The notes under the pieces: model-generated
Seen by the model: only the letters and a program-made list of their open reading frames with translations
Databases searched by the model: none
Told to the model about the DNA's origin: nothing
In this document: positions 1 through 13,974 of the stretch, piece by piece
How positions within the stretch are numbered: the stretch's first letter is position 1
How the letters are laid out: each line of letters begins with the position of its first letter
Assembly: GCA_048882385.1 (NCBI GenBank)
Contig: JBHLRQ010000024.1
Span: forward strand, 1-13,974
Direction: 5' to 3'
From: Candidatus Thorarchaeota archaeon
GTDB lineage: Archaea; Asgardarchaeota; Thorarchaeia; Thorarchaeales; Thorarchaeaceae
DNA: 13,974 nucleotides
Position numbers and translations under genes: made by a program

Positions 1-962
1 AGATTCATGATTAGTGTGACTAGCATTGACCAACTAACAATGCTCAATCCGAAACCATGAACCGACGATAATACTCCACTCCTTGTGGTCCATGTTGCAA
101 AAATTACAGTGATGTAAGCCATAACAAGAAATGAATCTCGAATTATGTCATTGTTTCTGAGTGTTGGTTTCGCGTGATAGTAGGCTGTTATTAGCAACCA
201 AGGAATAAGGGAAGTTGTTTCGACAGGGTCCCAAGCCCAATAGCCTCCCCAACCAAGGACTAAATACGCCCAATAACCTCCAATTGCTATGCCAGCGGAC
301 AACATTATCCATGCTGCCGCTGTTGTCAGACGTGTGTATGCGTTCACCACTGGGATGGGATCCTGATTGCGTTCTTCAGATCTCATTGTGAATCCAGCTA
401 GCATCACTGCAAATGGTACGAGCGTTAGTGCATATCCAATGAAAATGATTGGTGGATGGATGACATTCCAAATAGTTGAAAGTAATGGATTCAAACCTAG
501 ACCATTAGTTCGCACAAGTTCTGTAGTGACTCGGAATGGATCCGTAAGCAATGTATTTACTGCTATAAGAATTGACTCTATGACCATGATTATTGCTGCT
601 CTATAGACAAGCTTGTCATCCTCATATCCCCGAGACACAATTCGGAAACCAAAATATAATCCAAATGACAAAAATGTCCAAAAAACAAGAGACCCAGACT
701 GTCCAGCCCAGAGGGCGGATATCTTTAACAATAAATCTGCACCGATTTCAGTTGTTTGATAGACATAATCATACTGAAATTGATTACTAAAGATCAAAAA
801 ACCAAGCCAAATTATCGCTCCAAGTGAAAGCAAGAAACTAACTACAGAAGCAATGAATGAATAGTTTTCATAATCCTTTATTCTTGGTCCAAGTATTAGA
901 ATAATGGCATCAAGAAGGCCAAGGATTACAATTGCAATCAAAAGAATTGTACCAATATCCAT
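1..962 (-). CDS. ccmF: Cytochrome c biogenesis protein CcmF (System I heme lyase), N-terminal ~320 aa, 3' end outside window
   Basis: Translated by hand (not in ORF track). ATG at 962-960 follows GGAGA RBS (975-971); starts MDIGTILLIAIVILG. Contains CcmF motifs KISALWAGQSGSLVFW, GLGLNPLLSTIWNVIHPPIIFIGY, WGGYWAWDPVETTSLIPWL (WWD domain, 251-216) and TTRSGVLSSVHGF; multiple hydrophobic helices. Confidence 0.95.
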   Translation of the reverse strand, partial: MDIGTILLIAIVILGLLDAIILILGPRIKDYENYSFIASVVSFLLSLGAIIWLGFLIFSNQFQYDYVYQTTEIGADLLLKISALWAGQSGSLVFWTFLSFGLYFGFRIVSRGYEDDKLVYRAAIIMVIESILIAVNTLLTDPFRVTTELVRTNGLGLNPLLSTIWNVIHPPIIFIGYALTLVPFAVMLAGFTMRSEERNQDPIPVVNAYTRLTTAAAWIMLSAGIAIGGYWAYLVLGWGGYWAWDPVETTSLIPWLLITAYYHAKPTLRNNDIIRDSFLVMAYITVIFATWTTRSGVLSSVHGFGLSIVSWSMLVTLIMN

Positions 963-984
963 CTTTAATTTCTCCTATGTATGT

Positions 985-3156
985 TTAATCTCTCCTCCTA
1001 GGCCCGCGACTTCTTGCACGTTTTCGCGCAGCTTTCTTCCCCGCACGTTGCGTTTCTCCACGATCCCTCCTACGCATCCTTGCATAGGCATAGCCCACAC
1101 CTGGTGCAGCTACCAGTCCCACAGTCGCAACTACCTGGAAGACTGTAAATGGTGTGATATTGAATTCAGGTCCAAGTATAGTTAGACTATAGTATCTACT
1201 CTCTCCTACATTACCAGACTCATCCATAACGAGACTGAAAAATGAAATCTGATCTCCCTCGTTGAATTGTCCTAATACATATCGCCAGATTATTCTGTCA
1301 TTTTCCACTCCAATAGGCGTCATATTAACTGCAGTATATACACCTGCATTCAATCTCCACCAAAGCTCACAAGAATTAGTGTGGCTATGAATGGGAAATT
1401 CAAATGTTTCCATATCTATTATAATCTCATCGCCAATCCTTATCGGACCAGCGGGATAGATTGCATGAAGTTCAGCAGTGGGAGGGAAGATATCTGTACG
1501 TACAATGAAGTAGTATGAGCCAGCTACGAAAGTCCGACCTGTTGTGTCATTAGCCACAACATCAAAATTCACTTGAGTGCCATCTTCAAAATAACTCAGC
1601 GAATTGTTGAACCTTCCTCCCACTTGGGGATTAGGCATTAATGGAAGGATACCTAGTGTGTCATTGTCTTCAAGGCTCGCTGTATAGTTGACATATACAT
1701 AATCAACACCATCATCATCTAGTACTGTAGCTGCGAAATAGATAATGTCTTGAGGACGCGGATCTGTAGGAGAGATCCTCACTTGAGTCACAATAGGCAA
1801 ACCATAAGCCCACGCACGCTCCAAACTAATTATTGCTAGGCCTTGCACTGTAGTATAATGCATTCTCCATTCGTCGCTGAGAACAACCCATTCTTGGTTG
1901 CCATTACTCACAAAGCCCTCAGAAGTAAAATCCCATAGTTTCCCCAAGATCAACTCAAAGGTGTCAATCACCATTCTAATAGGATATATTGAGTCGGTTA
2001 TGTCATACAAATCCTCCAGAGCCAGAGTCATCTGCATCTGAATCTCAGAATATTTGTAAAATTTCACATCTTCATCGTCAAGAGGATCATATGGTTGGCC
2101 ATCAACTACTTCTGCATACCAACCCCCAAAATCTTCATCCCAGTTATTTGAAAAAAGTGTTTCAAAGACTTCGTTTGCCACAGCTAAATAAGTTGTGTTC
2201 CCAGTCGCTACATATCCTTTAACTAGTGCTCTAATAGCCATGGCGTTGAGGTCAGTGACAACTGAATGCGCAACCCTATCGCCTTGTGGCACACTGACTG
2301 TTGAACCAGAACGGGTTACTGCCAGCTTCAGACCTCTGAATTCCATATCATAATAATACTTCATATGTGAAAGCATGAATGAAATTGCACTATCTGCTAT
2401 ACTCAGTAGGGTTGTATTCCCGGTCGACAAACCAGCATCGTAAAGCACGTTTGCACCAAGAACTAGATGATCCAACCTCTTCCCGTCATTAGGGTAAATT
2501 TCATCGAAATATGTAGGCACATTGAGTGACCCGTTCCGCATAGTGTAAAAATGGAATCCTCCATAGATTGGATCGTAGAGCATATCCGTCAAACATCTCA
2601 GCGCACTCTCCTTCTCTATTGTGAAATCAAGAGACGTATTGGTGGATTCTGCAATTTCAAGGGCCCAGTATGCGTAGGCTTGAACTCCGGGTCGTTTAGT
2701 TTCTCGAATTTCTACACCGGAAAAATAATTCACATAGAATCCGGGATATACTGGGTCCATTAAAGAATTCACCATTTCTGTTGCCGCTCTACTCATGGCA
2801 ATCTTGAATGTTTCATTGTTTGAAATAGAATAAGCAGTTGACAAAGCTGATATAGCCCAGTAATAGCTAGATAAAGCAGTGGTAGCAATATATGCTGATA
2901 AATCATGAGTAACTGAATGAAAAACTTCTCCTGATGCAAGATTCATGTGCTTTGCTACCAGTAAATCAGCTGTTGCTTCCACATAATCGATATACGAAGA
3001 AATATTGTATTCAAGTTCCTGTGATAGGAGAGGTATCTTTGTATTCTCTACACTATCTATTGTATACTCCGGAGTAACAGTGATGTTTGCACCCAGAGTC
3101 AGTACATTAAACATCACAAGGGCAAATATTGCAGTGAAGATGATTTTTTGTTTCAT
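985..3156 (-). CDS. Exported, C-terminally membrane-anchored protein: six-hairpin (alpha/alpha)6 barrel (AGE-epimerase/YyaL/GH76-like) plus two Ig-like beta domains
   Basis: 723-aa ORF. Signal peptide MKQKIIFTAIFALVMFNVLTLGA. Four repeats of the barrel loop motif (MDPVYPGF, YDPIYGGF, WDEDFGGW, WDFTSEGF) and two 'TGNTT.L..A' helices. Beta-rich C-terminal half, then TM helix (VFQVVATVGLVAAPGVGYAYA) and Arg/Lys tail. At least 13 N-x-S/T sequons. Family assignment is from motif recognition only. Confidence 0.7.
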   Translation of the reverse strand: MKQKIIFTAIFALVMFNVLTLGANITVTPEYTIDSVENTKIPLLSQELEYNISSYIDYVEATADLLVAKHMNLASGEVFHSVTHDLSAYIATTALSSYYWAISALSTAYSISNNETFKIAMSRAATEMVNSLMDPVYPGFYVNYFSGVEIRETKRPGVQAYAYWALEIAESTNTSLDFTIEKESALRCLTDMLYDPIYGGFHFYTMRNGSLNVPTYFDEIYPNDGKRLDHLVLGANVLYDAGLSTGNTTLLSIADSAISFMLSHMKYYYDMEFRGLKLAVTRSGSTVSVPQGDRVAHSVVTDLNAMAIRALVKGYVATGNTTYLAVANEVFETLFSNNWDEDFGGWYAEVVDGQPYDPLDDEDVKFYKYSEIQMQMTLALEDLYDITDSIYPIRMVIDTFELILGKLWDFTSEGFVSNGNQEWVVLSDEWRMHYTTVQGLAIISLERAWAYGLPIVTQVRISPTDPRPQDIIYFAATVLDDDGVDYVYVNYTASLEDNDTLGILPLMPNPQVGGRFNNSLSYFEDGTQVNFDVVANDTTGRTFVAGSYYFIVRTDIFPPTAELHAIYPAGPIRIGDEIIIDMETFEFPIHSHTNSCELWWRLNAGVYTAVNMTPIGVENDRIIWRYVLGQFNEGDQISFFSLVMDESGNVGESRYYSLTILGPEFNITPFTVFQVVATVGLVAAPGVGYAYARMRRRDRGETQRAGKKAARKRARSRGPRRRD

Positions 3157-3200
3157 AGTCTTTGATTCCTAACGGATTGTCTCGTGCGGATTTGCACTTC

Positions 3201-3216
3201 GTTTTTAAAATTCAGG
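3201..3216 (-). promoter_or_regulatory. Putative archaeal TATA box (TTTTAAAA) for the 723-aa gene/ccmF unit
   Basis: Minus strand reads CCTGAATTTTAAAAAC, about 45-55 nt upstream of ATG 3156 and downstream of the hairpin terminator of the preceding gene. Confidence 0.4.
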
Positions 3217-3245
3217 TTGTGGCTGTGTTGGACTTGTATGAGCTG

Positions 3246-3287
3246 AAAGAAAAAGGGTTCCAGATGCCGAAGCACCTGGTATTACCC
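3246..3287 (-). terminator. Hairpin + U-tract terminator downstream of the multiheme cytochrome gene
   Basis: Minus strand: GGGT-aata-CCAGGTGC-TTCG-GCATCTGG-a-ACCC-TTTTTCTTT. 8-bp stem (one G.U), C(UUCG)G tetraloop, outer 4-bp stem and U-rich tail, starting 26 nt after the stop at 3314. Confidence 0.75.
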
Positions 3288-3313
3288 ATACGAATGTTTG
3301 TTTCTAGCAGCGC

Positions 3314-4669
3314 CTATCGACGTCTGCCAACCAAAACTCCTAGGAGTAGGCCAACAACAATACCACCTGCGGCTCCACCAACGACAATCAGAGTATCAAA
3401 ACCTCCAACTGGTGTAGGTGTGGTAGGCTCAGGCATATTCTCGTAGAAGTATGCCTTTGCGTCAAGTAGATCTCTGAATGCACCATTCAATGCATCAAAT
3501 GTTTCCATTGGATCATGGAATCCGGAAGAGCCATCATAACCATAATAGCCTACAGTGGTTGAAGCATCGTCAACTATTCCTAGTACATAATCGACTAGTT
3601 CATAGTCTGCGTCAGCTGTTGCATTGTATTCCATTACGATTGTTTCGAATGCATCTGCTTCAGTAGTGAAGTCTGTTACAAGTGCATCGAATGATGACTG
3701 AATCTCTTCCATTTGGGTTAGAGCCCAGTCTAGTTGTCCTTCATGGCACGCAGTTTGATTACAGGCATCCTCTGGTAGAACAGAGAATGTATGGTTCATC
3801 TCTGGTCCATGGTCACCTTCACGGAAACCATGGCAAGATGTACACTCAACAATGCCTGTCAGGTCGTGTGGACCACCTTTCCAGACATCATAGGTTCCAT
3901 GACGACTTCCTGTGTGACAAAGACCACAGAGTTCTGTGGCATTGACAGCGCGGATCATCGCTGGGTTCGCTATGTCTGCTGAATGGACAGAGTGACATGC
4001 TGGACAAGTTAGGGGATTGTATGGTCCTGCAGGATCTAGATCCGCATCTTGGTCGAGGAATCCCTCAACTGACATGCAGTGCATACATTCTGATCCTGCG
4101 TGGCTACTTCCTCTGAGATCTGTTAGTGAGTTGGCATGAGCCGATTCAGTCCAACCGTCCAAGCCGCCATGTCCTTCATGGATATGACAACTGGCACAAT
4201 TCGAACCATTAACTGAATAATACGGAGAAGTTGCATCGTGACACGTGAAACAATTGGTTCCAAATCCGTCATGTGTATTCGGCCAATCCGTAACATTACG
4301 TTCTGGAGTCCAACCGATTGCGTGACACTGTGCACAACTTGCATTGAATTCAGTCATAGTCCTATTTCTGTGACCGTTGACTGTGATAGTATCTGAGTCC
4401 GGATCATATTCAATCAGATAACCGGAGTGGGTTGTCTGATTCCAATATGTCCATTCTTCGTTATGACAGGTACCATCCAGACAGCCGTTCCCATATGATG
4501 GGTCGGCTAGTTCATGCGCTTCACGTACTCTATCACTGAATATAGTGATAGGTATTCCAGATCCAGTAGGTCCTAGGAGTATAGCGAAACCAATCAAGCA
4601 GAGGAACAGGTAGTACCCTGCCACCAACCGCTTATTGACCCCTGGGGTCTCGTCAGTGTAGTACACCAT
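3314..4669 (-). CDS. Membrane-anchored multiheme cytochrome c (up to 9 hemes; NrfA/HAO-superfamily-like C-terminal helical region)
   Basis: Motifs in order: CLDGTCH, CAQCH, CFTCH, CASCH, CMHCM, CPACH, CGLCH, CTSCH, CNQTACH. Then long helices ending in DGSSGFHDP, a PT-rich linker (PEPTTPTP), a TM helix and RRR. Start moved from the track's GTG 4768 to ATG 4669 (GGTGA RBS upstream; N-terminal hydrophobic signal/anchor follows), giving 451 aa. Confidence 0.92.
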   Translation of the reverse strand: MVYYTDETPGVNKRLVAGYYLFLCLIGFAILLGPTGSGIPITIFSDRVREAHELADPSYGNGCLDGTCHNEEWTYWNQTTHSGYLIEYDPDSDTITVNGHRNRTMTEFNASCAQCHAIGWTPERNVTDWPNTHDGFGTNCFTCHDATSPYYSVNGSNCASCHIHEGHGGLDGWTESAHANSLTDLRGSSHAGSECMHCMSVEGFLDQDADLDPAGPYNPLTCPACHSVHSADIANPAMIRAVNATELCGLCHTGSRHGTYDVWKGGPHDLTGIVECTSCHGFREGDHGPEMNHTFSVLPEDACNQTACHEGQLDWALTQMEEIQSSFDALVTDFTTEADAFETIVMEYNATADADYELVDYVLGIVDDASTTVGYYGYDGSSGFHDPMETFDALNGAFRDLLDAKAYFYENMPEPTTPTPVGGFDTLIVVGGAAGGIVVGLLLGVLVGRRR

Positions 4670-4754
4670 TGGTTTTTTCACCATATTCCCAAGATTTGGG
4701 TTTGTAATTTCCCCAAGGCCCTCAATAAAAATTTGTTGCCTCCAATGTGGTTGT

Positions 4755-4998
4755 GTGTTAGCTAACACTTACAATTTGAAATAATCTGGTTACGGAAGGT
4801 TCAGCATCACCTGTCTTTATCTCATTTCTCGTACAATAAATAACCAACTTGGTTACAAAGTTGCTTTACCACTATAGTTAACCCAGATATTTGTAACCGG
4901 TTGTTTTTTGGTATTGAACAAAGTCTTTCAATCCGTAACATTTTAAGCAAGGCCATTTCCACACCGGCTCAATTATCCGGAGATCTATCCGGGATAAT
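4755..4998. promoter_or_regulatory. Divergent promoter region with several palindromes/inverted repeats
   Basis: Perfect 14-bp palindrome GTGTTAGCTAACAC (4755-4768); TAACCAA-C-TTGGTTA (4841-4855); GGTTACAAA (4851-4859)/TTTGTAACC (4890-4898); ATTATCC (4972-4978)/GGATAAT (4992-4998). TATA-like TTTTAAG at 4941-4947 (+). Confidence 0.55.
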
Positions 4999-5028
4999 GC
5001 CGACAATGTATTGTAAGCGGTGGCCTTC

Positions 5029-6237
5029 ATGAAACGAAATGTCAAAATTGGCCTTGTTGTTTTAGCAGTAACCGTTTTGTTGGTGTTTGGCGCAGTCAAT
5101 GTTTTTGCCAACCGTGATGTCGAATCTAACTGTGGAGGGTGCCACAGTGATCCGACTGGCATCACGCTCACAATGGCATCATCAATTGATGTAGAACCTG
5201 GCGAAACCTTTCAGCTTGATGTGACAGCATCCGGGCTGTCACAGGATGTATTTGTTCTGCGTATACCCGACAATGTTGATGATAATGCAGATTTCACGAT
5301 ATTAGTCCCTAACAATCCGAGTGATCCAGGACTAGTAAGTGATAATGACGCAAACGACCAAAACTCAGCTGCAAATGCTGTTCAAACAAGCTATAGCATC
5401 ACAGCTCCGGCTTTTGTAGGTCAATTCACTCTGACTGTATTTGCAGTTCAGCATACACCTGCAGGAGCTAGTAGTTCAATCACTGTCAATGTTATTCAAA
5501 CTGGTGCGGGTCCAACTATCGGACAACCTCAGACATCCCCTGATGTTCCACTCGCAAATGAGGATTTTGAAGTTTCAGTTGAAATTTCTTCTAATGAAAC
5601 AATAACATATGTCATTCTCCAATACAGCTTGGACAATGGAACCAGCTGGGAAAACATCACAATGACAGAGTCTGATGGAGTATATGTTGGTATAATACCA
5701 GCCAGTGTAAATAGTGCAAACGATATAGAGGTTCTTTGGAGAATAGTCGCTGCTGATGCTACTGGAACCGAGAGGGTTAGTGCACCACTGTCATATGTTG
5801 TAGGACAGGTTCCAGTTGAACCAATAGAATTACCTCAGTACCATTATGGCTGGCTACTTGGTGCACCAGCACTAGCGCTTGCATATCTTGGAACAGCTCT
5901 CGAATACTACGACGAAGAGAGATTCACACGAGCTCATGGGATTATGCTAAGTCTCGCCTACATTCTAACAACGATCAATGTACTTAGTCTATTCACAGAA
6001 CCAGCTGGTGCCTGGACAGCTATGAATCCGGTATACTTGTTTGATTTGAGTAACATACTTTTGTTCATGCACTCATGGCACATATGGCTGGGAATAATAA
6101 GCATGATACTTGGATCGCTTGCATTTCTAACTCATCTTGGTGGTTGGAAAACATGTAATCTTGGACTGCCTGCGGTTGTCCTTTGGACAATTCTTGGGAT
6201 AATGGGAATCTATCTCGGAGAAACCTTTGTGATGTGA
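5029..6237 (+). CDS. Exported monoheme cytochrome c (beta-sandwich/Reeler-like) + Ig-like domain + C-terminal His-containing ~4-TM domain
   Basis: ATG 5029 (GGTGG RBS; track uses GTG 5020), 402 aa. Signal peptide MKRNVKIGLVVLAVTVLLVFGAVNVFA, then CGGCH 8 residues after the predicted cleavage site. Two beta-rich domains. C-terminal TM helices carry His in RAHG, MHSWH and THLGG. Confidence 0.8.
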   Translation: MKRNVKIGLVVLAVTVLLVFGAVNVFANRDVESNCGGCHSDPTGITLTMASSIDVEPGETFQLDVTASGLSQDVFVLRIPDNVDDNADFTILVPNNPSDPGLVSDNDANDQNSAANAVQTSYSITAPAFVGQFTLTVFAVQHTPAGASSSITVNVIQTGAGPTIGQPQTSPDVPLANEDFEVSVEISSNETITYVILQYSLDNGTSWENITMTESDGVYVGIIPASVNSANDIEVLWRIVAADATGTERVSAPLSYVVGQVPVEPIELPQYHYGWLLGAPALALAYLGTALEYYDEERFTRAHGIMLSLAYILTTINVLSLFTEPAGAWTAMNPVYLFDLSNILLFMHSWHIWLGIISMILGSLAFLTHLGGWKTCNLGLPAVVLWTILGIMGIYLGETFVM

Positions 6238-6238
6238 G

Positions 6239-7723
6239 GTGAGTGATGTGACAGAAACAGAAGTAAACAAAGTACCCGAACCAGTACCTATTGAAGAAAC
6301 TCCTAGGGAGATAACAGTCCTTGATAAGCTTGCTGAGATTGTGACCGAAGAGAGGGTCACAGATTCTGAGCTGGAAAGGGTTGTATACAGTGGAGACCCC
6401 TCTTCACTTCCACAGTATCATTACAGGTGGAAAGGAAAATACCTCACAGATTATGTTGTCAGAGTTGAAAATGTGAACGAGATTGAAGGAGTGCTGAAGG
6501 TTGCGCGCGAACACAAGCTCCCTGTTATTCCGCGTGGAGGTGCATCGAGTTGCATGGGTTCTTCAAGTCCAAGTCGTGGGGGTATCTCTCTCGATATTAA
6601 ACCCATGAATAAGATTCTCGAAATCAATAAGGAAGCTGGATTTGTCCGCGTTGAGCCAGGAGTGACCTTTGAAAGACTCGATGATGAACTTAGCAAAGAT
6701 GGACTGACACTTGGTATCTATCCTTCAAGTGCCAAGTCTGCTGTTATTGGGGGATGGATTGCTTGCGGAGGTCGAGGTGGTATTGGTACTCCATATTATG
6801 GATCACTACGTGAACATACTCTGTCTCTGTCAGTTATTGGTGGAGATGGAGTTGTTAAGGTGGTCGAGGGAGACGAGATAGACCTTTTCCTTCATTCCTA
6901 TGGAATCCTTGGAGTCATCTTCGAGGTTAAGCTCCAGGTCCATGAGCTACAAACTGATTACAAGACTTTCAGTTATGGATTTGGTACATTGGAGGGGCTA
7001 TGCAATGCAATGGTGGAAATAGCTCGACTTGAACAAAAACCGGTCTATTTGAAAATCGCTGATGAAGAACTGCAAAAATACAGCAACCCTATCAGTGATG
7101 GGAAATATGTTCTGTCGGCAACTTACATCGATGCTTCGACAAAAGTACCCGCTGAGGATTTAAGCTCCATTACAGGTAAACATGGAGGAGTCCATCTTGG
7201 TGATGAGTTCTCAGAAAAGGAATGGGAACTTCGTTACGATGCAGAGTTCAATCCAAAGGAACACACAGAAACCTTGATGTTCCAAGAACTGTGGATACCA
7301 ATTGAAAACGTACATGAGATGCTCTCAGCTTATGAGTCATATCGAAGTTCTCACAAGATTCCAGCCCTCTGGTTTGGAATGCTTGGTACTCCTGAAGCTA
7401 TGAGACTTGAGCTAATGACTATGATTGATGCAGAACAGTATCTCAAGTTTATTGCCAGTAAAGGAATCTTGCATAAAATGATGAAGAAGGCTATCAAGAA
7501 CGGTGGTGTGCCATATACAATCGGACTTCAGAATTCAATATATATGACACGAGCATATCCCGATCGGTTAGTCCAAATGCAAGCCGCAAAAGAGAAGTGG
7601 GATCCTGACGGAATAATGAATCCAGACAGAGTAGTTAGCTGTTTGACTTCATACAGGAGAATAGATGTATTGTTCATCTTGGCTACAGCGTTCAGACGGC
7701 TGTCAAGATATGTGGGGAAGTGA
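6239..7723 (+). CDS. FAD-binding oxidoreductase, GlcD/Dld (VAO/PCMH) family, copy 1
   Basis: 494-aa ORF (alternative GTG 6248 after GAGGTGA). PCMH FAD-binding motifs PVIPRGGASS, VRVEPGV, YPSSAKSAVIGGWIA, SYGILGVI; C-terminal KEKWDPDGIMNPD. Confidence 0.9.
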   Translation: MSDVTETEVNKVPEPVPIEETPREITVLDKLAEIVTEERVTDSELERVVYSGDPSSLPQYHYRWKGKYLTDYVVRVENVNEIEGVLKVAREHKLPVIPRGGASSCMGSSSPSRGGISLDIKPMNKILEINKEAGFVRVEPGVTFERLDDELSKDGLTLGIYPSSAKSAVIGGWIACGGRGGIGTPYYGSLREHTLSLSVIGGDGVVKVVEGDEIDLFLHSYGILGVIFEVKLQVHELQTDYKTFSYGFGTLEGLCNAMVEIARLEQKPVYLKIADEELQKYSNPISDGKYVLSATYIDASTKVPAEDLSSITGKHGGVHLGDEFSEKEWELRYDAEFNPKEHTETLMFQELWIPIENVHEMLSAYESYRSSHKIPALWFGMLGTPEAMRLELMTMIDAEQYLKFIASKGILHKMMKKAIKNGGVPYTIGLQNSIYMTRAYPDRLVQMQAAKEKWDPDGIMNPDRVVSCLTSYRRIDVLFILATAFRRLSRYVGK

Positions 7724-7732
7724 GGTGTTACT

Positions 7733-8857
7733 ATGAATATCGATAATCTATCAGAAGTACTAAAGCACTGTGGGTCATGTAATTACTGCCGAGACACTTG
7801 TCCGATGTATATAGAGCTGCAATCTGAGCTTGATAGTCCCGGAGGTAAACTCCGAGCTCTCAGGGCTTATGCTACAAAGATGAGGAATCCACCTGTTGAA
7901 CTTCTGCAGAGACTTTACTGTGCAGACTGTCGAAGATGTGAGGCTATCTGTCCAGCAGGTGTTCCAGTCACGGATATCTGGCACGATGCCAAAAAACAGC
8001 TATTGAAGACAGGAGCTCCAATGTCAGAAGCACTTCAGAAGGTTCTTGATTGGATCGAACAGGAAGGTACTCCTTTCGTTGGTTATGAGCAAGATGATCG
8101 AACAGTATGGGCTGAAGATCTTGAGCTTCCCCCAGAGTCAAACACTGCTATCTTTTCAGGATGCATGGGATCATTTTGGTACCCCGATCAGCCCGAAACT
8201 GTAGTTGATATGTTACATAAACTGAAAGTGAACGCGGGATATGTTCCAAGTGAAGTTTGTTGTGGATTATTCAACTACTGGGCGGGCGATGACAAAGGAT
8301 TCGAAGAAGTAGTGAAGAAGAACTATGCGATGTTCAAGAAAGCTGGTGTGGATCACATTGTAACTGGATGCGGAGGGTGTTATGGAACCCTTGCTGAGCA
8401 CTATCCGCATATCATTCCAGATTTCGACATCACAATACTTCATACAGTTGAAGTCTTAGCAGATATGGTTCGGAATGGAGTACTAACATTTGATGGATTG
8501 GAGGGATCCTACACATTTCATGACAGTTGTCATCTTGGAAGAGCGCTTGGAATTTATGAAGCTCCTCGTGAGATTATCCGGGCGGTTCCAGGGTTAGAGT
8601 TTGTAGAAATGAAGAATAACCGTGACAAAAGCAATTGTTGCGGTGGATTCCTTACTGTACTTGATCCAAATCTGTCAGAGTCTGTAGGTAGAAGAAGAGT
8701 AGCTGAAGCAGAGGAACTTGGTGTGGATGGCATAATCACAACATGTGTTTCATGCTACAAGAATCTAAGTTACAATGCACGAGATACGAATCTAGAAGTA
8801 ATTCAACTCGATGAATTGATTCTAGACAAGGCTCGAGCCTCACAAGTGGAGGAGTAG
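7733..8857 (+). CDS. Fe-S oxidoreductase, GlcF/HdrD-like (2x[4Fe-4S] + two CCG domains), copy 1
   Basis: CGSCNYCRDTCP and CADCRRCEAICP ferredoxin motifs; CCG domains SGC..EVCCG..CGGC and HDSCH..NCCGG..CVSC. GAGGTG RBS overlaps the upstream TGA. Confidence 0.92.
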   Translation: MNIDNLSEVLKHCGSCNYCRDTCPMYIELQSELDSPGGKLRALRAYATKMRNPPVELLQRLYCADCRRCEAICPAGVPVTDIWHDAKKQLLKTGAPMSEALQKVLDWIEQEGTPFVGYEQDDRTVWAEDLELPPESNTAIFSGCMGSFWYPDQPETVVDMLHKLKVNAGYVPSEVCCGLFNYWAGDDKGFEEVVKKNYAMFKKAGVDHIVTGCGGCYGTLAEHYPHIIPDFDITILHTVEVLADMVRNGVLTFDGLEGSYTFHDSCHLGRALGIYEAPREIIRAVPGLEFVEMKNNRDKSNCCGGFLTVLDPNLSESVGRRRVAEAEELGVDGIITTCVSCYKNLSYNARDTNLEVIQLDELILDKARASQVEE

Positions 8858-8891
8858 TAAGAATTAACTAGGATAAATGGAGATGTCAACT

Positions 8892-10220
8892 ATGAGCAAA
8901 GAAAAAGGCACGAGAGTTGTAATCGTCGGCGGTGGAATCTCAGGATTCAGCTGCGCACTTGAATTAAAAGGACTAAAAGCACGATGTACGATTCTAGAGA
9001 AGGAAAAGACAGTTGGTGGTCGAGCTAGGTCCTATACTGAATCAGGATATGTGTTTGACCAAGGTTTGCACTTCTTCGTTGGTGGTTTCAAATCACTAAT
9101 TCCAATCCTTGAACGAAGTGGAGTGAGAATGACAACTGTTGGCGAAGGCGCAGTCTGGCTAAAGGATGGAGAGAGACACATCATCCGAAAATCAGCTGTT
9201 GAGTTGGCGAAGTTTGGTTTGTTACCTGCAACAGATCGAGCAAGACTCGGACTACTCGTTCAAGAAAACATTGGTCGGAAAGAAGAGGAGTTCAGAGAAT
9301 TAGATAATATGACATTCTCAGAATATGCAAACGACAAGAAGATTCCCGAAACGATTCAGAATGAGTTCTATGATCCACTAATACGAACAGTGACATTCAT
9401 GGACCCCTCTGAAGTTTCGGCAGGCCAATATCTCTACTCTGAACACCTAAGGTTTGCATATGAGGATGGATTCAGTGCGATGTATCCTGAGCGTGGAGGA
9501 TTAGGCAGTGTTGCCTACACGTTGATGCTTCAAGCTCGCAATTTTGGTGTTGAACCTCAAGTCAATTGTGCAGTTGACCAAGTTATAATCGAAAATGGTA
9601 AGGTTGTAGGTGTAGACTATACACAGAATGGGGAAACAAAGCATCTTGATACAGATGCCGTTGTATTGACAATTCCCATAGATCTAATCTACAACTTTGT
9701 CAAGAAAAGTGACTTGCCAAACGAGTTCAATCAAAAGATTTCCAAATTCGAATATGCTCCTTCCACTGTTGCATACTTTGGTCTGAAGTCTCGAGTACTT
9801 GATTTCAATGTTGGCGCATTCGTACCTGGCAGAAAGATCAATATCGTAGCTGAAGCCAAGAGAGTATCGGGAGTACTCGCACCCATTGGAGAATCACTCC
9901 TTACTGTGACTGGAATAGATAAGGAACTTCTCAAGATGAGCGATGAAGATGCAACTCAAGCTATCCTTGATGAGCTAGAGATTCTTGTTCCTGGAGTAAG
10001 TGAGAAGGTCACGTGGAAGAAGAGTTGGAAAATCTGGAAATCTGTTCTCAAACAGCCACCAGGAATTATGGGTGACAGATTGACATCCAATCGAACCGGT
10101 GTTGAAGGTCTCTATGTAGCAGGAGCTTATGCAAATTGCGGCATGTACTATGCCTCCATGGAAGCGGCTTCAAGATCAGGAATTGCCTGTGCTGGTGAAA
10201 TGATTAAGGATCTCAAATAG
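8892..10220 (+). CDS. FAD-dependent oxidoreductase, flavin amine oxidase superfamily (HpnE/phytoene desaturase/HemY-like)
   Basis: VVIVGGGISG Rossmann motif, LEKEKTVGGRARS, FDQGLHFF, C-terminal GLYVAGAY...SMEAASRSGIACA. Start chosen at ATG 8892 after GGAGA (alternatives 8877, 8883). Confidence 0.85.
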   Translation: MSKEKGTRVVIVGGGISGFSCALELKGLKARCTILEKEKTVGGRARSYTESGYVFDQGLHFFVGGFKSLIPILERSGVRMTTVGEGAVWLKDGERHIIRKSAVELAKFGLLPATDRARLGLLVQENIGRKEEEFRELDNMTFSEYANDKKIPETIQNEFYDPLIRTVTFMDPSEVSAGQYLYSEHLRFAYEDGFSAMYPERGGLGSVAYTLMLQARNFGVEPQVNCAVDQVIIENGKVVGVDYTQNGETKHLDTDAVVLTIPIDLIYNFVKKSDLPNEFNQKISKFEYAPSTVAYFGLKSRVLDFNVGAFVPGRKINIVAEAKRVSGVLAPIGESLLTVTGIDKELLKMSDEDATQAILDELEILVPGVSEKVTWKKSWKIWKSVLKQPPGIMGDRLTSNRTGVEGLYVAGAYANCGMYYASMEAASRSGIACAGEMIKDLK

Positions 10221-10239
10221 CCTAGTAGTAAGACACAAT

Positions 10240-10263
10240 TGCCAAGGGCAATGACCCTTGGCA
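10240..10263. promoter_or_regulatory. Perfect 9-bp inverted repeat (operator or RNA hairpin) in the internal intergenic gap
   Basis: TGCCAAGGG-CAATGA-CCCTTGGCA, immediately followed by TATA-like CTATATA (10267-10273); no U-tract. Confidence 0.5.
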
Positions 10264-10323
10264 TAACTATATACTCAGTGCGAGATAATCAAAAATAGGC
10301 ATCTCAATACGGTGACCTTCGTC

Positions 10324-11514
10324 ATGACCAAAACAGACTTCCTAGAAAAGTATGGACAAGAGGATGAACCGTATGTATGTGCTTCATGCGGAAATTGCAC
10401 TCTGGTGTGTCCAGTTTTCAGAGATCTAAAATGGGAGTCTTATGGTCCAAGAGGTAAATTACACATTGTTAAATCGATCATCGAAGGTGAAGGAAAATTC
10501 GGTGAAGACTTTGCTCATAGAATTTTCCTCTGCAACTTATGTGAACATTGCACATTTGTCTGCACAACTGGAATCCGTCTTGATAGATTTTGGGAGGTTA
10601 TCCGTGCAGAGGTTAGGCAACGAGGTTTGATGCCTAGGCCAGCTCAATTTGTATTAGATTCTGTAAAGTCTAGAGGAGACATAATGTGGATGGGTTCTTC
10701 TGATAGACTTCTTTGGATGGAAGAAATAGAGGATATAATTAAGGATAGAATTCTAAAACCAGCCAAAGTTGCATATTTTCTTGGATGTAATGTCGCTCTC
10801 AAATCTCAACTACATGATGTAGCCAAATCAATGATCAAAATCTTGGAATATGCAGAAGTCGATTACACTCTGCTAGCTGATAAGGAAGTGTGCTGTGGAG
10901 CTCCTCTTGGATGGGCAGGAAACTTCGAAGGTATTAATGAAATGGCCAAGAAAAACTTAGAGTTGATGAAAAGTCTTGGTGTTGAAACAGTAGTATTCAG
11001 TTGTCCTTCATGTATTCAGACATGGAAAGAATATAGTACATTTTTCCAGGAAGAATCTAGTATTGAGTTATTGTCTGCATCCCAATTCATTAAGAAACTC
11101 ATTCGTGAGAAACGACTAAAGTTTGAAGAACAGCCAATGGTCACTGTCACATTTCATGATCCATGTATCTCTGCCAGAGTACTGAACTGTATTGAAGAAC
11201 CACGTGAAATCATAGATGATATTCCAGGAGTCTATAATGTTGAAATGACTCCATCCAAAGAGCACACACGGTGTTGTGGGTCACACGGACTACTAGATGT
11301 TGTCGATCCAGTCCTCTCATCCAGAATCGCAGAGATGCGTCTGAGAGATGTAACTGTCACTCCAGCTACACGAGTCGTTACTGAATGTCCAAGGTGTATT
11401 CTTGGGTTTGACTTAGCTAAATTCACAACAGGATATGAGATGAAAATACAAGACATCACGCAACTTGTTGCAGAGTCTTTGTTACCAAAAGAGGGAGGCG
11501 ACAAAGACCAATGA
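10324..11514 (+). CDS. Fe-S oxidoreductase, GlcF/HdrD-like (2x[4Fe-4S] + two CCG domains), copy 2
   Basis: CASCGNCTLVCP, GPRGK, CNLCEHCTFVC; CCG domains LGC..EVCCG..CPSC and HDPC..RCCGS..CPRC. ATG 10324 follows GGTGA (track uses GTG 10312). Confidence 0.92.
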   Translation: MTKTDFLEKYGQEDEPYVCASCGNCTLVCPVFRDLKWESYGPRGKLHIVKSIIEGEGKFGEDFAHRIFLCNLCEHCTFVCTTGIRLDRFWEVIRAEVRQRGLMPRPAQFVLDSVKSRGDIMWMGSSDRLLWMEEIEDIIKDRILKPAKVAYFLGCNVALKSQLHDVAKSMIKILEYAEVDYTLLADKEVCCGAPLGWAGNFEGINEMAKKNLELMKSLGVETVVFSCPSCIQTWKEYSTFFQEESSIELLSASQFIKKLIREKRLKFEEQPMVTVTFHDPCISARVLNCIEEPREIIDDIPGVYNVEMTPSKEHTRCCGSHGLLDVVDPVLSSRIAEMRLRDVTVTPATRVVTECPRCILGFDLAKFTTGYEMKIQDITQLVAESLLPKEGGDKDQ

Positions 11515-13232
11515 AAATCAATGAGATTCGGATACAAGATATTGTCGGAGCGGACAATGTGTCAATTACTCATGAAACGTGCATGATGTACTCTAAAGAT
11601 GTAACAAGTCTACCCGACCTTGCATATCAAATTGTAAGCCCTAAATTTGATGTTATCACGCAACCAGTTGATGTACCATCTCTTCAGAACTTAGTTGAGT
11701 ACGCAATTGAAAGCAAAATTCCACTAGTACCAAGAGGGAATGGAACATCTGGATGGGGCGGAGCAATTCCAACCCGCGCAGGAATCTGTGTGGATCTCTC
11801 CGAATTGAATCGAATATTATACTTCAATGAGTTTGAATCCGCAGTGACAGTTGAATCAGGAATAACTTGGAGAGACCTACTATCTTTCCTGGAACGCCTT
11901 GGTTTCACATTACCAGTTTATCCATCAAGTGCTATAGCTGCAACCGTTGGGGGTTTTGTTGCAAGTGGGGGTTTAGGAATTGGTTCAACTCGGCATGGAG
12001 ATATTTTGAAGCAAGTCATTGGGATTGAAGCAGTTCTACCAAATGGAAAGCTAGTGAGGTTAGGAAAGCTCTTGCTTAATCCACAAGACGATACATTACT
12101 AGAAAACAGTGAGGAAGGAACAGCTTGGTTGAGTCAAATCCTATCAGAATCTGGTCTTGGGACACCGGAACAGGAATCAAAGCTAATTACTGGAACATAC
12201 GGAACATTGGGAATCATCACGAAGATTACATTAAAGACAATACCAAATCTCCAACTCATTCCTTTTGCCTGTTCATTCGATACTATAGAGGATTTAGTTA
12301 ACATCGCGAACAGAATCCGTTTAGACGTGCAACCGTATTTTTTGAGATTTCTTTCAGATAATTACACGTCAAAATTAAGATCGCTGAAAGACCAGGAACT
12401 TGAATATGGTAAATTCATTCTAACCGGTGCGCTTCTAGATACAATCTACCAAAATGAAGACAACATTGAGGTTATCAAAACTCTCACTCAGGAAGGTAAC
12501 GGAATACTATTGGATGACAGTCGAGCTTGGTTTTATTGGTCTGAGCGTCTGTATCCATTAAGGATTAAACGCCATGGACCAAGCCTAGTCCCTGCTGAAA
12601 TGCTTGCTCCTTTAGATATGCTACCTGAAATTCTAGAAAAGACAAAGGATGAACTCAGAAAATCAAAAGTAGCAATTGAGGGTACCCTCAACAACGATGG
12701 TAATACATCATTCATGGTCTGGATACTGGATGATGAAAGAAGGAAGTTTTCATTCACAATTGGATGGCATCGATCCTTCCAGATAGCATCGCTGGCTGAG
12801 AAGTTTGGAGGGTTGCCATATGCTGTTGGACTTTGGAATGGACGTCATGCTAGAAGGTACTATGGAAACCAATCATTTGAGGAACTCAAGATAATGAAGA
12901 GTAAATTAGATCCTCATAATCTCATGAACCCTGTCAAAGTATTTGGAGGTAGAGTGACTCCTGGTCGTGCCTCTTTACTTGCTGGATTTCTTCTAGGATT
13001 CTTTGCTGCACTCGTCATTCTATCTTTTGGTCCTAGTATTCTCGGTCTCACCTGGTTAAATCAGTTGCTAAATTCAAATTCCATCCCAATTATTGGAATT
13101 CCTAATTTCATGTTTTTATCCGTGTTTGGAGGGCTTCTGGGAATTCTCATAATAAGACTAATGACACTTAATCAAGCTCTTGCTCTTGGTATCCCTTTGT
13201 TACGCTTCCTTAGTAAGATACTAAGAAAATGA
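11511..13232 (+). CDS. FAD-binding oxidoreductase, GlcD/Dld family, copy 2, with C-terminal membrane helices
   Basis: 573 aa; ATGA overlap with the upstream stop. PLVPRGNGTSGWGG, YPSSAIAATVGGFVASGG, GTYGTLGIITK, KSKLDPHNLMNPVK, then a ~95-aa extension with two hydrophobic segments. Confidence 0.9.
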   Translation: MKINEIRIQDIVGADNVSITHETCMMYSKDVTSLPDLAYQIVSPKFDVITQPVDVPSLQNLVEYAIESKIPLVPRGNGTSGWGGAIPTRAGICVDLSELNRILYFNEFESAVTVESGITWRDLLSFLERLGFTLPVYPSSAIAATVGGFVASGGLGIGSTRHGDILKQVIGIEAVLPNGKLVRLGKLLLNPQDDTLLENSEEGTAWLSQILSESGLGTPEQESKLITGTYGTLGIITKITLKTIPNLQLIPFACSFDTIEDLVNIANRIRLDVQPYFLRFLSDNYTSKLRSLKDQELEYGKFILTGALLDTIYQNEDNIEVIKTLTQEGNGILLDDSRAWFYWSERLYPLRIKRHGPSLVPAEMLAPLDMLPEILEKTKDELRKSKVAIEGTLNNDGNTSFMVWILDDERRKFSFTIGWHRSFQIASLAEKFGGLPYAVGLWNGRHARRYYGNQSFEELKIMKSKLDPHNLMNPVKVFGGRVTPGRASLLAGFLLGFFAALVILSFGPSILGLTWLNQLLNSNSIPIIGIPNFMFLSVFGGLLGILIIRLMTLNQALALGIPLLRFLSKILRK

Positions 13233-13250
13233 ACCTCCCGATATCTAAAA

Positions 13251-13437
13251 TTAGCATTTTTGCAACCAAACATTGAAGTAATTGTAGGATAGTTTCATAC
13301 AACTAGGTTGCATATTGACGGTTTTCGTTCATATACAAATGAACATAGGTTAACCAATATGCTAAAATACGAGACCTATGTTCCAAAACGAAACTGAGCA
13401 ATGACGTTTACTACATTGGAACATACATCTTGTAACG
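13251..13437. promoter_or_regulatory. Intergenic region dense in inverted repeats upstream of the second monoheme gene
   Basis: TGCAACC (13261)/GGTTGCA (13306); GCATATTG (13310)/CAATATGC (13355); GAACATAGGT (13341)/ACCTATGTTC (13374); TATGTTCCAA (13377)/TTGGAACATA (13416); palindrome GGTTAACC (13348-13355). Confidence 0.5.
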
Positions 13438-13456
13438 TAATCTAGGTGACAACGAT

Positions 13457-13974
13457 ATGAAACGTAAACAATCCATGAAGCTTTTCATTGTTATGATGGG
13501 CTTCCTAATTCTAAGTCTCGCGGCTGCAGGATCAATAACGGCATTTCCTAGTCAAGCGAATGAATGCGGTAGTTCAGGATGTCACGACACTGCAGGAGTA
13601 TTAACATTGGCTTCAAATTCTACGTCTGTGAGCGCAACCTCCGGAACTCCTTTTACATTGCAGATTGATGCAGGAAACGGAGCACAGTGGGTTTCTATCA
13701 AACCAGGTTGGGCAGACAACTCCAATTTCACAGTTTCTGATAGTCATGTAGAAGATGATTCCGCAGATGATACAAATGGTGCTTCAGGCGAAATCACAGT
13801 CATCGTGACTTTTACACCATTGTCACCAGGAAATTTGACGATTCGGGTCTGGACTGCGGCAGGAAGCGATTTGGCTTCATCCATCGATATCGATGTTGAA
13901 GTGACTGGCCAGACTATAACAACAGTCACTCCACCTCCTGACCCTAGCGAACAACTCTATGAAATTTGGACTAT
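13457..13974 (+). CDS. Exported monoheme (CX4CH) beta-sandwich protein, paralog of 5029..6237; 3' end outside window
   Basis: Translated by hand (not in ORF track). AGGTGA RBS, ATG 13457, open to the window end: MKRKQSMKLFIVMMGFLILSLAAAGSITAFPSQANECGSSGCHDTAGVLTLAS...PFTLQIDAG...WADNSNFTV...VEDDSADDTN...GNLTIRVW...TITTVTPPPDP. Confidence 0.85.
   Translation, partial: MKRKQSMKLFIVMMGFLILSLAAAGSITAFPSQANECGSSGCHDTAGVLTLASNSTSVSATSGTPFTLQIDAGNGAQWVSIKPGWADNSNFTVSDSHVEDDSADDTNGASGEITVIVTFTPLSPGNLTIRVWTAAGSDLASSIDIDVEVTGQTITTVTPPPDPSEQLYEIWT

Follow-up and report, generated by a model that had tools for sequence, protein, structure and literature searches.

The DNA analysed here, positions 1 to 13,974 of contig JBHLRQ010000024.1 of a Candidatus Thorarchaeota assembly (GCA_048882385.1; the whole stretch of 13,974 bases is called the window below), appears from its genes to belong to an Asgard archaeon resembling Thorarchaeota and to lie within a gene island of respiratory type. 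Its ten long open reading frames (ORFs) form two divergent arms (Table 1), and its GC content is 0.39-0.46. The plus-strand arm is led by cyt4TM, a fusion of a haem-c-type ectodomain to a four-helix (4-TM) membrane domain, and continues with two GlcD-like flavoproteins, two HdrD/GlcF-like Fe-S proteins, a PDS/HpnE-like (desaturase-like) flavoprotein and a second haem-c protein, cyt2. The minus-strand arm encodes a multihaem cytochrome c (MHC), an exported protein of 723 amino acids (p723) and a CcmF/NrfE-type haem lyase. The reading that we favour, and to which we give about an even chance, is that these genes encode a direct wire leading outward across the membrane: a transmembrane module resembling HdrDE and Tmc, which would take its input from a GlcD-type flavoprotein and, in this clade, deliver its output to an OcwA-like cytochrome.

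In such a chain the GlcD-like flavoproteins would oxidise a substrate located in the cytoplasm or near the membrane, which is probably no classical D-2-hydroxyacid. Electrons would then run through the Fe-S and CCG clusters of an HdrD-like partner, for which the cytoplasmic loops of the 4-TM domain would serve as the docking site. The membrane would be crossed via one or two His-ligated haems b, and the covalently bound haem c outside would receive the electrons and hand them to the putative nine-haem surface reductase. From there they would pass to an acceptor outside the cell, be it a mineral, another cell acting as partner, or an oxyanion of N or S in solution. A preliminary description of the window had proposed a chain of this kind, which would start at cytoplasmic flavin adenine dinucleotide (FAD) and Fe-S/CCG centres and lead through a membrane domain to exported haem c. 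All the genes that it named were found, and the parts fit the proposal.

Asgard archaea are the closest known relatives of eukaryotes, and their energy metabolism has been inferred almost wholly from genomes. The thorarchaeotal operon is a concrete candidate for anaerobic respiration or for extracellular or interspecies electron transfer. This cluster was not found described in the openly licensed full texts of PMC and bioRxiv, a scope outside which most subscription papers lie, so that a description elsewhere is possible. Cytochrome c biogenesis in Asgards is discussed for Heimdallarchaeia lineages in one study (bioRxiv 10.1101/2024.07.04.601786), and HdrDE together with a possible Fe(III) link is discussed for Hermodarchaeota in another, which states that it identified no extracellular cytochromes (PMC8163825).

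Conservation of the operon

One genome per species was scanned with the cyt4TM alignment (A1), resulting in 30 loci, mostly from metagenome-assembled genomes titled Thorarchaeota and referred to here by L numbers, and the window proteins were placed on these loci by tblastn. In all 30 loci glcD1 was found immediately 3' of cyt4TM, and the plus-strand order was collinear in 30/30 as far as each contig extends. Since this order is kept in 30 of 30 species-level loci, the arrangement goes beyond chance. The run glcD1-hdrD1-desaturase-hdrD2-glcD2-cyt2 was complete in 17/17 loci reaching cyt2 and holds down to 46-55% identity of the fusion protein, and the PDS/HpnE-like gene lay between both HdrD genes in all 20 loci that reach it. 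The genes are closely packed in the window, with gaps of 1, 9 and 19 nt and a 4-nt overlap of the hdrD2 stop with the glcD2 start. The 1-nt gap between the fusion gene and the first GlcD-like gene, reported in the preliminary description, is exactly one base (6238); in this first module cyt4TM leads, and is translationally packed against, glcD1.

The cluster had been put forward as a candidate self-contained conduit, but in relatives the operon runs on beyond the point where the window ends, and no ccm gene other than ccmF is found in the window. A gene for a DUF2231-like protein followed cyt2 and preceded hdrD3 in 16/17 loci reaching cyt2 (for example L001:19029-19541, plus strand), and a third hdrD and glcD were present downstream in 15/16 loci with 10 kb of downstream sequence, the exception being L020, which has a 2.2-kb insertion. 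The DUF2231-like protein is a four-helix membrane protein of 170 amino acids with invariant H7, H12, H14 and H51 and an invariant start, HPxFxHFHTG. Its match to PF09990 (E 2e-4, residues 5-156 of 170) scored 21.8 bits against a cut-off of 26.4 and thus did not reach the gathering score. This third module follows the plan of the first in split form and is made up of a one-anchor haem-c protein (cyt2), a His-rich 4-TM protein of DUF2231-like type, an HdrD and a GlcD. Modules 1 and 3 share one logic but build it on membrane proteins that are not homologous (cyt4TM in the former, cyt2 with the DUF2231-like protein in the latter), a repetition which argues that the association is functional.

A homology and synteny search had been suggested as a check on the conservation of the whole cluster; the plus-strand operon was kept throughout, but the two arms were linked in one clade only. 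Among the 18 loci with more than 5 kb of upstream sequence, MHC-p723-ccmF was present in seven and ccmF only in one (L010). Four shorter loci begin in or beside MHC, which brings the loci with an adjacent MHC to 11/30, all of them with a fusion protein at least 60% identical to that of the window. The minus-strand arm is therefore clade-specific and stands beside the operon only in the closer clade. In L010, two tandem cyt2-like genes (5485-6432 and 6434-7369, both plus strand; about 311-315 amino acids, no Pfam family) replace MHC and p723 between ccmF and the operon.

A search for relatives of cyt4TM returned 138 proteins at E<=0.001 (8000 candidates scored). Organism labels were available for 26 of the 120 listed relatives, namely 22 Candidatus Thorarchaeota, 2 Promethearchaeota, 1 Odinarchaeota and 1 Hodarchaeota, in agreement with the archaeal origin proposed for the locus. 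Every named relative among the 120 listed of the 138 had the product name 'hypothetical protein'.

Predicted electron carriers

The cyt4TM protein consists of a signal peptide, a haem-c-type motif (CGGCH at residue 38), a pair of Ig-like beta-sandwich domains and, at the C-terminus, a His-rich membrane domain, the four long helices of which fall at residues 281-402 in the model. The AlphaFold2 model built with 24 sequences had a predicted local distance difference test score (pLDDT) of 79.2, with the stretch around C-X2-C-H modelled poorly; modelled alone, the membrane domain gave a pLDDT of 81.6 and a predicted template-modelling score (pTM) of 0.74. The residues C38, C41, H42, H275, H306, H351, H354, H372 and C379 were invariant in the 24 sequences of alignment A1, among which the spacing of the motif varies from C-X2-C-H to C-X4-C-H. 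The 4-TM domain was the best conserved part, at 67-88% identity (alignment A3) versus 47-78% for the whole protein (A1), and its five histidines and C379, together with the loops YYDEE..T..HG and GWKTCN, were invariant in sets of 24 and 31 sequences. By the topology that the signal peptide implies, H275, H351 and H354 are placed at the outer helix ends and H306 and H372 at the inner ends, a pattern such as one or two bis-His haems b would give. The same topology would have both invariant short loops face the cytoplasm, and they look like a docking site for a cytoplasmic partner. Complex prediction with HdrD-like 1, GlcD-like 1 (residues 31-494) and the 4-TM domain scored 0.00 in two runs without controls and counts neither for nor against binding.

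By Pfam and by fold search of the PDB, the membrane subunit was not detectably homologous to dihaem cytochrome b of the NarI/HdrE/DsrM type. Foldseek with the full cyt4TM model returned Ig-like or FN3-like matches only and was uninformative on the membrane domain. A resemblance of the 4-TM domain to DUF420 in an Atlas feature search was dropped, its score of 0.77 being under the usable level. The idea that the 4-TM domain and the DUF2231-like protein are fused and split homologs was likewise rejected (hhalign probability 0.3%, E 0.23).

A profile search of 1.84 billion representatives with cyt4TM gave 32 proteins at E<=0.001, five of them at E<=1e-30. The distant relatives are about 290 amino acids in length, with one sandwich domain and the same membrane domain (P0240-P0258). 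In these relatives the Cys-His is invariant, as are the His preceding helix 1, the helix-2 His-Gly and the second His in helix 3. When their alignment was used as the query, 110 proteins were obtained, with labels that included 10 Promethearchaeota, 3 Lokiarchaeota, 3 Hermodarchaeota, 2 Thorarchaeota and 2 marine sediment metagenome; all were named 'hypothetical', except for one truncated UniRef name starting 'Cytochrome oxidase subu'. Judged by these sequences, the cyt4TM family is Asgard-wide.

The second haem-c protein, cyt2, has a signal peptide, a CX4CH motif and one beta-sandwich domain. Its gene runs off the window; orthologs are 191-243 amino acids long and end in one transmembrane helix, and the full-length ortholog of L001 has 198 amino acids and a single membrane anchor. 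It had been described as a second monohaem paralog of the fusion protein. The relationship to the N-terminal domain of cyt4TM was borne out (29% identity, E 4e-7), but the motif is CX4CH instead of CXXCH, and the full-length ortholog lacks the 4-TM domain.

Both GlcD-like proteins scored over cut-off for PF01565 (110 and 113 bits for GlcD-like 1 and 2) and PF02913 (33.8 and 35.8 bits), and with 115.2 and 111 bits against a cut-off of 567.9 for TIGR00387 (glcD) they did not reach the equivalog level. In D-lactate dehydrogenase (D-LDH) and D-2-hydroxyglutarate dehydrogenase, a His...His pair and a Glu-His-Gly motif form the metal site. When GlcD-like 1 was aligned with mouse D-LDH, the two active-site His paired with Met and GEHGIG paired with VPYTIGL; where D-LDH has GEHGIG, the GlcD-like proteins have G-G-x-P-Y-(T/A)-(I/V)-G. 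A classical D-2-hydroxyacid substrate is improbable because the usual His/His/Glu site is missing, and the proteins form a separate subfamily. The closest PDB sequence match of GlcD-like 1 was alkyl-dihydroxyacetone-phosphate (alkyl-DHAP) synthase (E 8.7e-20, FAD domain only), and DprE1 was among the NCBIfam matches of the GlcD-like proteins. GlcD-like 1 ends in a conserved amphipathic tail. GlcD-like 2 carries a C-terminal anchor of about 85 amino acids with two to three helices and no His (hydrophobic segments at 489-563), so that the description of both GlcD-like pairs as cytoplasmic has to be qualified for the second.

Both HdrD-like proteins contain two ferredoxin-type CX2CX2CX3C motifs and two complete CXnCCGXmCXXC motifs. 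The CCG family PF02754 matched HdrD-like 1 with 118.9 bits and HdrD-like 2 with 99 bits, each in two stretches, and Fer4_8 matched the latter with 39.8 bits. All ten CCG-motif Cys and all eight ferredoxin-type Cys of HdrD-like 1 were invariant in 22 orthologs (alignment A4). The best NCBIfam models were TfrB, LdhH, GlpC, GlcF, DsrK and TmcB, all far under their equivalog cut-offs: HdrD-like 1 and 2 scored 70.9 and 64.4 bits with DsrK (cut-off 400), 56.9 and 92.4 bits with TmcB (735), 43 and 51.3 bits with HmcF (750), and 87.3 and 84.4 bits with GlcF NF008434 (333). The TmcB alignment of HdrD-like 2 covers nearly its full length. The closest solved chains by sequence were 9ojn_A, an 'Iron-sulfur-binding reductase' (E 7.8e-17), and HdrB. 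As for the duplication of the flavin/CCG modules reported earlier, two pairs are indeed present, and they are old paralogs, the GlcD-like proteins being 25% and the HdrD-like proteins 28% identical to each other. The PDS/HpnE-like flavoprotein encoded between them matched PF01593 with 130 bits, HpnE with 118 bits (cut-off 283) and the plant PDS chain 5mog_A at E 9.6e-16.

The MHC has six CXXCH and two CX4CH motifs, an N-terminal transmembrane helix, and a C-terminal transmembrane anchor with an RRR tail. These eight C-Xn-C-H sites were invariant in 27 aligned sequences (alignment A6); sites 1 and 9 have variable spacing, of 2-6 and of 4 to about 12 residues. A further invariant site, C228-M-H230-C231-M, lies between sites 4 and 6, its last Met being Gln in one of the 27 sequences. 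The A6 profile matched OcwA (6i5b_A) in the PDB at E 2.4e-26, with the longest stretch covering query residues 159-402 and chain residues 247-496, followed by chains of NrfA (E about 4e-15 to 1e-7), by 6qvm and octahaem nitrite reductases, and by a weak match to MccA. HMMER aligned the C-M-H-C-M site with the fifth OcwA motif, CLKCH. The MHC thus presents nine candidate haem sites in the order of OcwA, with Met at the position of the proximal His of a catalytic-type haem. We know of no CXXCM haem site in any described cytochrome. The site may hold a haem whose proximal ligand is Met or missing, or it may be a lost site in which the Cys are retained. The N-terminal helix and its flanks (MVYYT...GYYLFL...LLGPTGSGIP; residues 34-73, window 4570-4669) were nearly invariant in 26 of 27 relatives. 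Because such conservation is unusual for a cleaved signal peptide, the helix is probably retained and may contact a membrane partner.

The report on OcwA (TherJR_2595, PDB 6I5B) describes a nonahaem cell-surface terminal reductase of Thermincola potens in which hemes 2 and 5 are high-spin active sites (PMC6703420). The MHC resembles it from haem site 4 through the C-terminal helical region, in the number and order of its nine candidate sites, and in a surface location suggested by the anchors of the MHC. It differs from OcwA in that site 5 is C-M-H-C-M and not C-X-X-C-H, in the variable spacing of sites 1 and 9, and in its N- and C-terminal transmembrane tethers. NrfA, octahaem nitrite reductase and MccA are more distant relatives.

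The nature of the final acceptor (mineral, partner cell or soluble oxyanion) is a question separate from the ranking of a direct wire against a quinone loop, inward flow or a biosynthetic role. A soluble substrate is a real possibility, to which we give somewhat less than an even chance: the MHC would then be a nitrite, hydroxylamine or sulfur-oxyanion reductase in respiration or detoxification, with the CcmF/NrfE-like lyase as a dedicated maturase of its unusual haem sites. Many of the 116 MHC relatives carry PF02335 and the NCBI name 'ammonia-forming cytochrome c nitrite reductase subunit c552', and the profile also picks up chains of NrfA and octahaem nitrite reductase (E 4e-15 to 1e-8). 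The variable spacing at sites 1 and 9 recalls MccA and SirA, which need dedicated lyases, and the lyase of the window scores top against NrfE models. The C-M-H-C-M site, moreover, aligns with the haem-5 motif of OcwA, the high-spin second active site, and OcwA itself reduces nitrite and hydroxylamine, although slowly, with a kcat for nitrite of 1 per min (PMC6703420). Against a soluble endpoint, the motif script detected no CXXCK in the MHC, the window protein itself did not reach PF02335 at E<=0.01, and the surface reductase OcwA leads the solved relatives, ten orders of magnitude ahead of NrfA.

Proposed route and direction of electron flow

In HdrDE, DsrMKJOP, Tmc and Hmc, a CCG/HdrD-type protein sits on a membrane cytochrome, and Dsr, Tmc and Hmc also have c-type haems at the outer side. 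The genes described here are similar to those for HdrDE of Methanosarcina and for DsrMK(JOP), TmcABCD and HmcABCDEF of sulfate reducers in that a cytoplasmic CCG Fe-S protein would be teamed with a His-rich membrane subunit. Unlike those systems, however, the membrane domain is fused to a haem-c and Ig-like ectodomain and is not detectably related to NarI, HdrE or DsrM, a flavoprotein of the VAO family takes part as an obligatory partner, an Asgard archaeon is the host, and the equivalog scores are far under cut-off. With GlcDEF and the D-lactate and D-2-hydroxyglutarate dehydrogenases (YdiJ, Dld-II type) the system shares an FAD_binding_4 plus FAD-oxidase_C flavoprotein with a two-CCG Fe-S partner, but the GlcD scores are 111-115 against 567.9, GEHGIG is replaced, and both flavoproteins have membrane-seeking C-termini. 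We know of no haem-c/4-TM partners in any described GlcD/GlcF system. The preliminary description had recognised the gene combination from no characterised system; the cluster was indeed not found described in the openly licensed full texts, but its design logic is that of HdrDE, DsrMKJOP, Tmc and Hmc. The module logic and most of the domains are known; new are the family of the membrane subunit, the subfamily of the flavoprotein and the lineage of the host.

'Fpo-associated HdrD/GlcD' units have been predicted in Bathyarchaeia, Methanomethylicia and Korarchaeia (PMC10667645). As in those units, pairs are tied to complex I-like or Fpo-like genes, and the deeper Thorarchaeota clade even has a GlcD::NuoB fusion. 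In place of the minus-strand arm, the 10 kb upstream in L013, L016 and L020 contain a complex I-like operon (NuoA, J, K, C, D, H and I plus antiporter-like subunits), which includes the fusion gene in L016 (4607-6601, minus strand) and L020 (2067-4007, minus strand). NuoB forms the C-terminal part of the fusion (178 bits with the NuoB model against a cut-off of 116), and the gene is divergent from a fourth HdrD-like gene; by tblastn, such a glcD(-)/hdrD(+) pair was found upstream in L016, L020, L021, L022, L025 and L026. The presence of the fusion in a complex I-like operon ties the GlcD family to membrane electron transport and energy metabolism. Similar ORFs of 646-651 amino acids were seen in L021, L022 and L026. 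Two proteins of PNPOx fold are encoded directly before cyt4TM in the deeper-clade loci.

Several observations weigh against a direct outward wire. The direction of flow is not set by sequence, and outward flow is what we propose. A haem b in the 4-TM domain is inferred from invariant His alone. Residues 261-405 matched no Pfam family at E<=1, and no PDB fold reached E<=0.001 with the model of the domain; the top-ranked one, cytochrome c oxidase subunit III (E 0.09), is a generic helix bundle. One of the putative ligands, H372, is Gly in distant relatives of Loki and Hermod type (read by eye, alignment A8). A single Cys-His stands in place of C-Xn-C-H in 11 of 13 aligned distant relatives, which makes a covalent haem uncertain for the wider family; a covalent two-thioether haem is likely for members of the Thorarchaeota type only. 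The motif EHG[IVL]G was present in none of 48 GlcD-like ORFs of at least 430 amino acids in the loci (70 were found, and the 22 shorter ones were left out). No MHC arm lay beside the operon in 10/18 loci with more than 5 kb upstream. Finally, genes for a MenA-type prenyltransferase, a polyprenyl diphosphate synthase and a GGR-family reductase stand beside or inside the cluster in relatives, and their proximity means that a quinone rather than a direct haem wire is possible.

GlcDEF and GlpABC reduce quinone at the inner face of the membrane. By analogy, GlcD/HdrD, and in relatives the complex I-like enzyme, could reduce a menaquinone-like carrier at the inner face, with cyt4TM serving as a quinol dehydrogenase like NrfH/CymA that passes electrons to its own haem c outside, the MHC as the terminal enzyme, and no haem b wire. 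We consider such a loop unlikely, and several features speak for it. The MenA-type prenyltransferases of relatives scored over the TIGR00751 cut-off (126.1 and 104.1 bits against 102.15). In L001 the gene lies 3.5 kb past ccmF, beside those for polyprenyl diphosphate synthase and the GGR-family reductase (328-1386, minus; 1528-2568, plus; 2571-3770, minus), and in L010 the MenA-type gene or these companions lie beside ccmF (3036-5245); synthase and reductase are placed next to the prenyltransferase in both loci. In L020 the prenyltransferase is a PNPOx fusion (14164-15702, plus) between hdrD1 and the desaturase gene. These genes are hints of a menaquinone-like carrier in Thorarchaeota. In addition, members of the family to which the PDS/HpnE-like flavoprotein belongs act on isoprenoids or use quinones, the C-termini of the two GlcD-like proteins are membrane-seeking, and H372 is not kept in the distant relatives. 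On the other side, the invariant cytoplasmic loops and the 1-nt packing on glcD1, seen in every locus, would be needless for a quinol oxidase working at the outer face, and MenA-like genes were adjacent in only three of the loci examined (L001, the L010 region and L020).

Flow could also be inward, with electrons drawn from an outside source (a partner, a mineral or reduced haem c) or from a quinol and led through the 4-TM proteins to the CCG clusters of HdrD and on to a cytoplasmic disulfide or other acceptor, the GlcD-like protein being the final reductase or a second input. Heterodisulfide reductases have their catalytic site in CCG domains, residues 139-230 are matched by HdrB, and DsrK, TmcB and HmcF are among the NCBIfam matches. 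HdrD/GlcD pairs of other archaea are read as heterodisulfide-reducing units in one report (PMC10667645), and HdrDE-linked electron transfer is a matter of speculation for Hermodarchaeota in another (PMC8163825). No mcr gene or coenzyme M/coenzyme B context, however, was found in the 21 kb around any locus. Pairs of GlcD-type and GlcF/CCG proteins (GlcDEF, D-lactate dehydrogenases, YdiJ) run from substrate to FAD to Fe-S, and OcwA-type proteins are characterised as reducing external acceptors. Inward flow seems to us improbable. Very improbable is a biosynthetic or lipid-modifying cluster, in which VAO flavoproteins like alkyl-DHAP synthase or DprE1, the desaturase and the nearby isoprenoid genes would serve the synthesis or modification of an isoprenoid lipid or quinone while the HdrD-like proteins and cytochromes did no more than dispose of the electrons: the best PDB sequence match of GlcD-like 1 (FAD domain only), the DprE1 match, the missing hydroxyacid site, the membrane-seeking tails and the isoprenoid genes near the operon in relatives would suit it, but haem proteins accompany three to four paralogous GlcD/HdrD modules, GlcD::NuoB in a complex I-like operon fits energy metabolism better, and the isoprenoid genes lie outside the conserved core and are absent from most loci within 10 kb.

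The direct outward wire can be extended to a broader proposal, namely that Thorarchaeota, and in simpler form other Asgards, own an undescribed family of transmembrane wires, with a haem-c/Ig head and a His-rich four-helix domain, which work without quinone between GlcD/HdrD and an OcwA-like reductase. We regard this extension as speculative and rather doubtful. If it is true, extracellular acceptors could be respired or electrons passed directly to a bacterial partner, which bears on syntrophy and on 'reverse flow' models of eukaryogenesis. For biochemistry the operon also offers three starting points: a membrane domain that falls in no known family, a subfamily of GlcD-like proteins lacking the usual active site, and C-X-X-C-M at the position of a catalytic haem.

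Features of the window and the minus-strand arm

The features of the window are listed in Table 1. Domains were called with Pfam and NCBIfam, and haem motifs and hydrophobic segments with a script. The cyt4TM ORF opens at GTG 5020, with ATG 5029 as the probable start; the longest MHC ORF reaches GTG 4768, and its probable true start, M34 at 4669, was taken from the starts of relatives. Rfam and tRNA scans of the window gave no match.

Table 1. Genes and regulatory-type elements of the 13,974-base window, with the evidence for each
Feature	Position	Strand	Basis
CcmF/NrfE-type haem lyase, N-terminal 320 aa, runs off window	3-962	-	PF01578; WWD and HPP motifs
p723, exported membrane-anchored AGE-fold protein, 723 aa	985-3156	-	Atlas model vs AGE-family clusters
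MHC, OcwA/NrfA-family multihaem cytochrome c	3314-4669	-	haem motifs; profile vs PDB
Divergent intergenic region MHC/cyt4TM, 359 bases	4670-5028	.	8-locus alignment
GTTACRRA half-sites	4789-4796 (+), 4852-4859 (+), 4890-4897 (-), 4932-4939 (-)	two per strand	motif scan
cyt4TM (haem-c/4-TM fusion)	5029-6237	+	motif script; AlphaFold2 model
GlcD-like VAO/PCMH-family flavoprotein 1	6239-7723	+	PF01565, PF02913
HdrD/GlcF-like Fe-S protein 1	7733-8857	+	PF02754 (two stretches), Fer4_8
Amine-oxidase-fold PDS/HpnE-like flavoprotein	8877-10220	+	PF01593
HdrD/GlcF-like Fe-S protein 2	10312-11514	+	PF02754 (two stretches), Fer4_8
GlcD-like flavoprotein 2 with C-terminal membrane anchor	11511-13232	+	PF01565, PF02913
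cyt2, second haem-c protein, runs off window	13457-13972	+	CX4CH motif

The CcmF fragment matched PF01578 with 89.9 bits (cut-off 29.9), and the WWD motif (WGGYWAWDPVE) and the HPP motif were readable. The best NCBIfam models were NrfE (152.8 bits) and CcmF/NrfE (141.5 bits), both under cut-off on this 320-residue fragment; the full-length ortholog in L001 has 688 amino acids. As in dedicated system I lyases of the NrfEFG/SirEFG type, a CcmF/NrfE gene here stands two genes from a multihaem cytochrome with non-standard haem motifs. Unlike in those systems, no NrfF/NrfG-like or CcmH-like gene was seen beside ccmF, and the intervening gene encodes p723, an AGE-fold protein without CXXC.

The p723 gene, which was missing from the gene list of the preliminary description, lies between ccmF and MHC in 7/7 complete arms. 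The protein has a signal or transmembrane segment, an (alpha/alpha)6 barrel like those of AGE and cellobiose-2-epimerase, beta domains, a C-terminal transmembrane helix and an Arg-rich cytoplasmic tail. Over residues 44-540 its model matched AGE-family clusters of the Atlas with TM-scores of 0.77-0.84, depending on the row; by sequence it belongs to no Pfam family and has a weak NCBIfam match to EpiA (E 1.8e-4). The protein has two Cys and no CXXCH, and since no redox motif was seen in it, p723 is not counted as an electron carrier. A role as a CcmH/CcmI-like partner of the lyase was ruled out by the lack of CXXC, the presence of only two Cys, and the AGE-type barrel.

The intergenic region between the two arms contains invariant blocks in an alignment of eight loci (A7), as well as a TTTTAAG box and an inverted repeat, ATTATCC...GGATAAT, within 4970-5000. 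The sequence GTTACRRA occurs five times in the window, four of them in the intergenic region; 1.34 would be expected in the entire window, and five were reached in 2 of 200 shuffles. In the 410 bases before cyt4TM it was present one to four times in 10/10 scanned loci with an adjacent MHC, compared with 3/18 other scanned loci. The half-sites and the inverted repeat, which are conserved in the clade with both arms, are probably binding sites of a regulator, and the divergent region probably provides for shared regulation of both arms in the closer clade.

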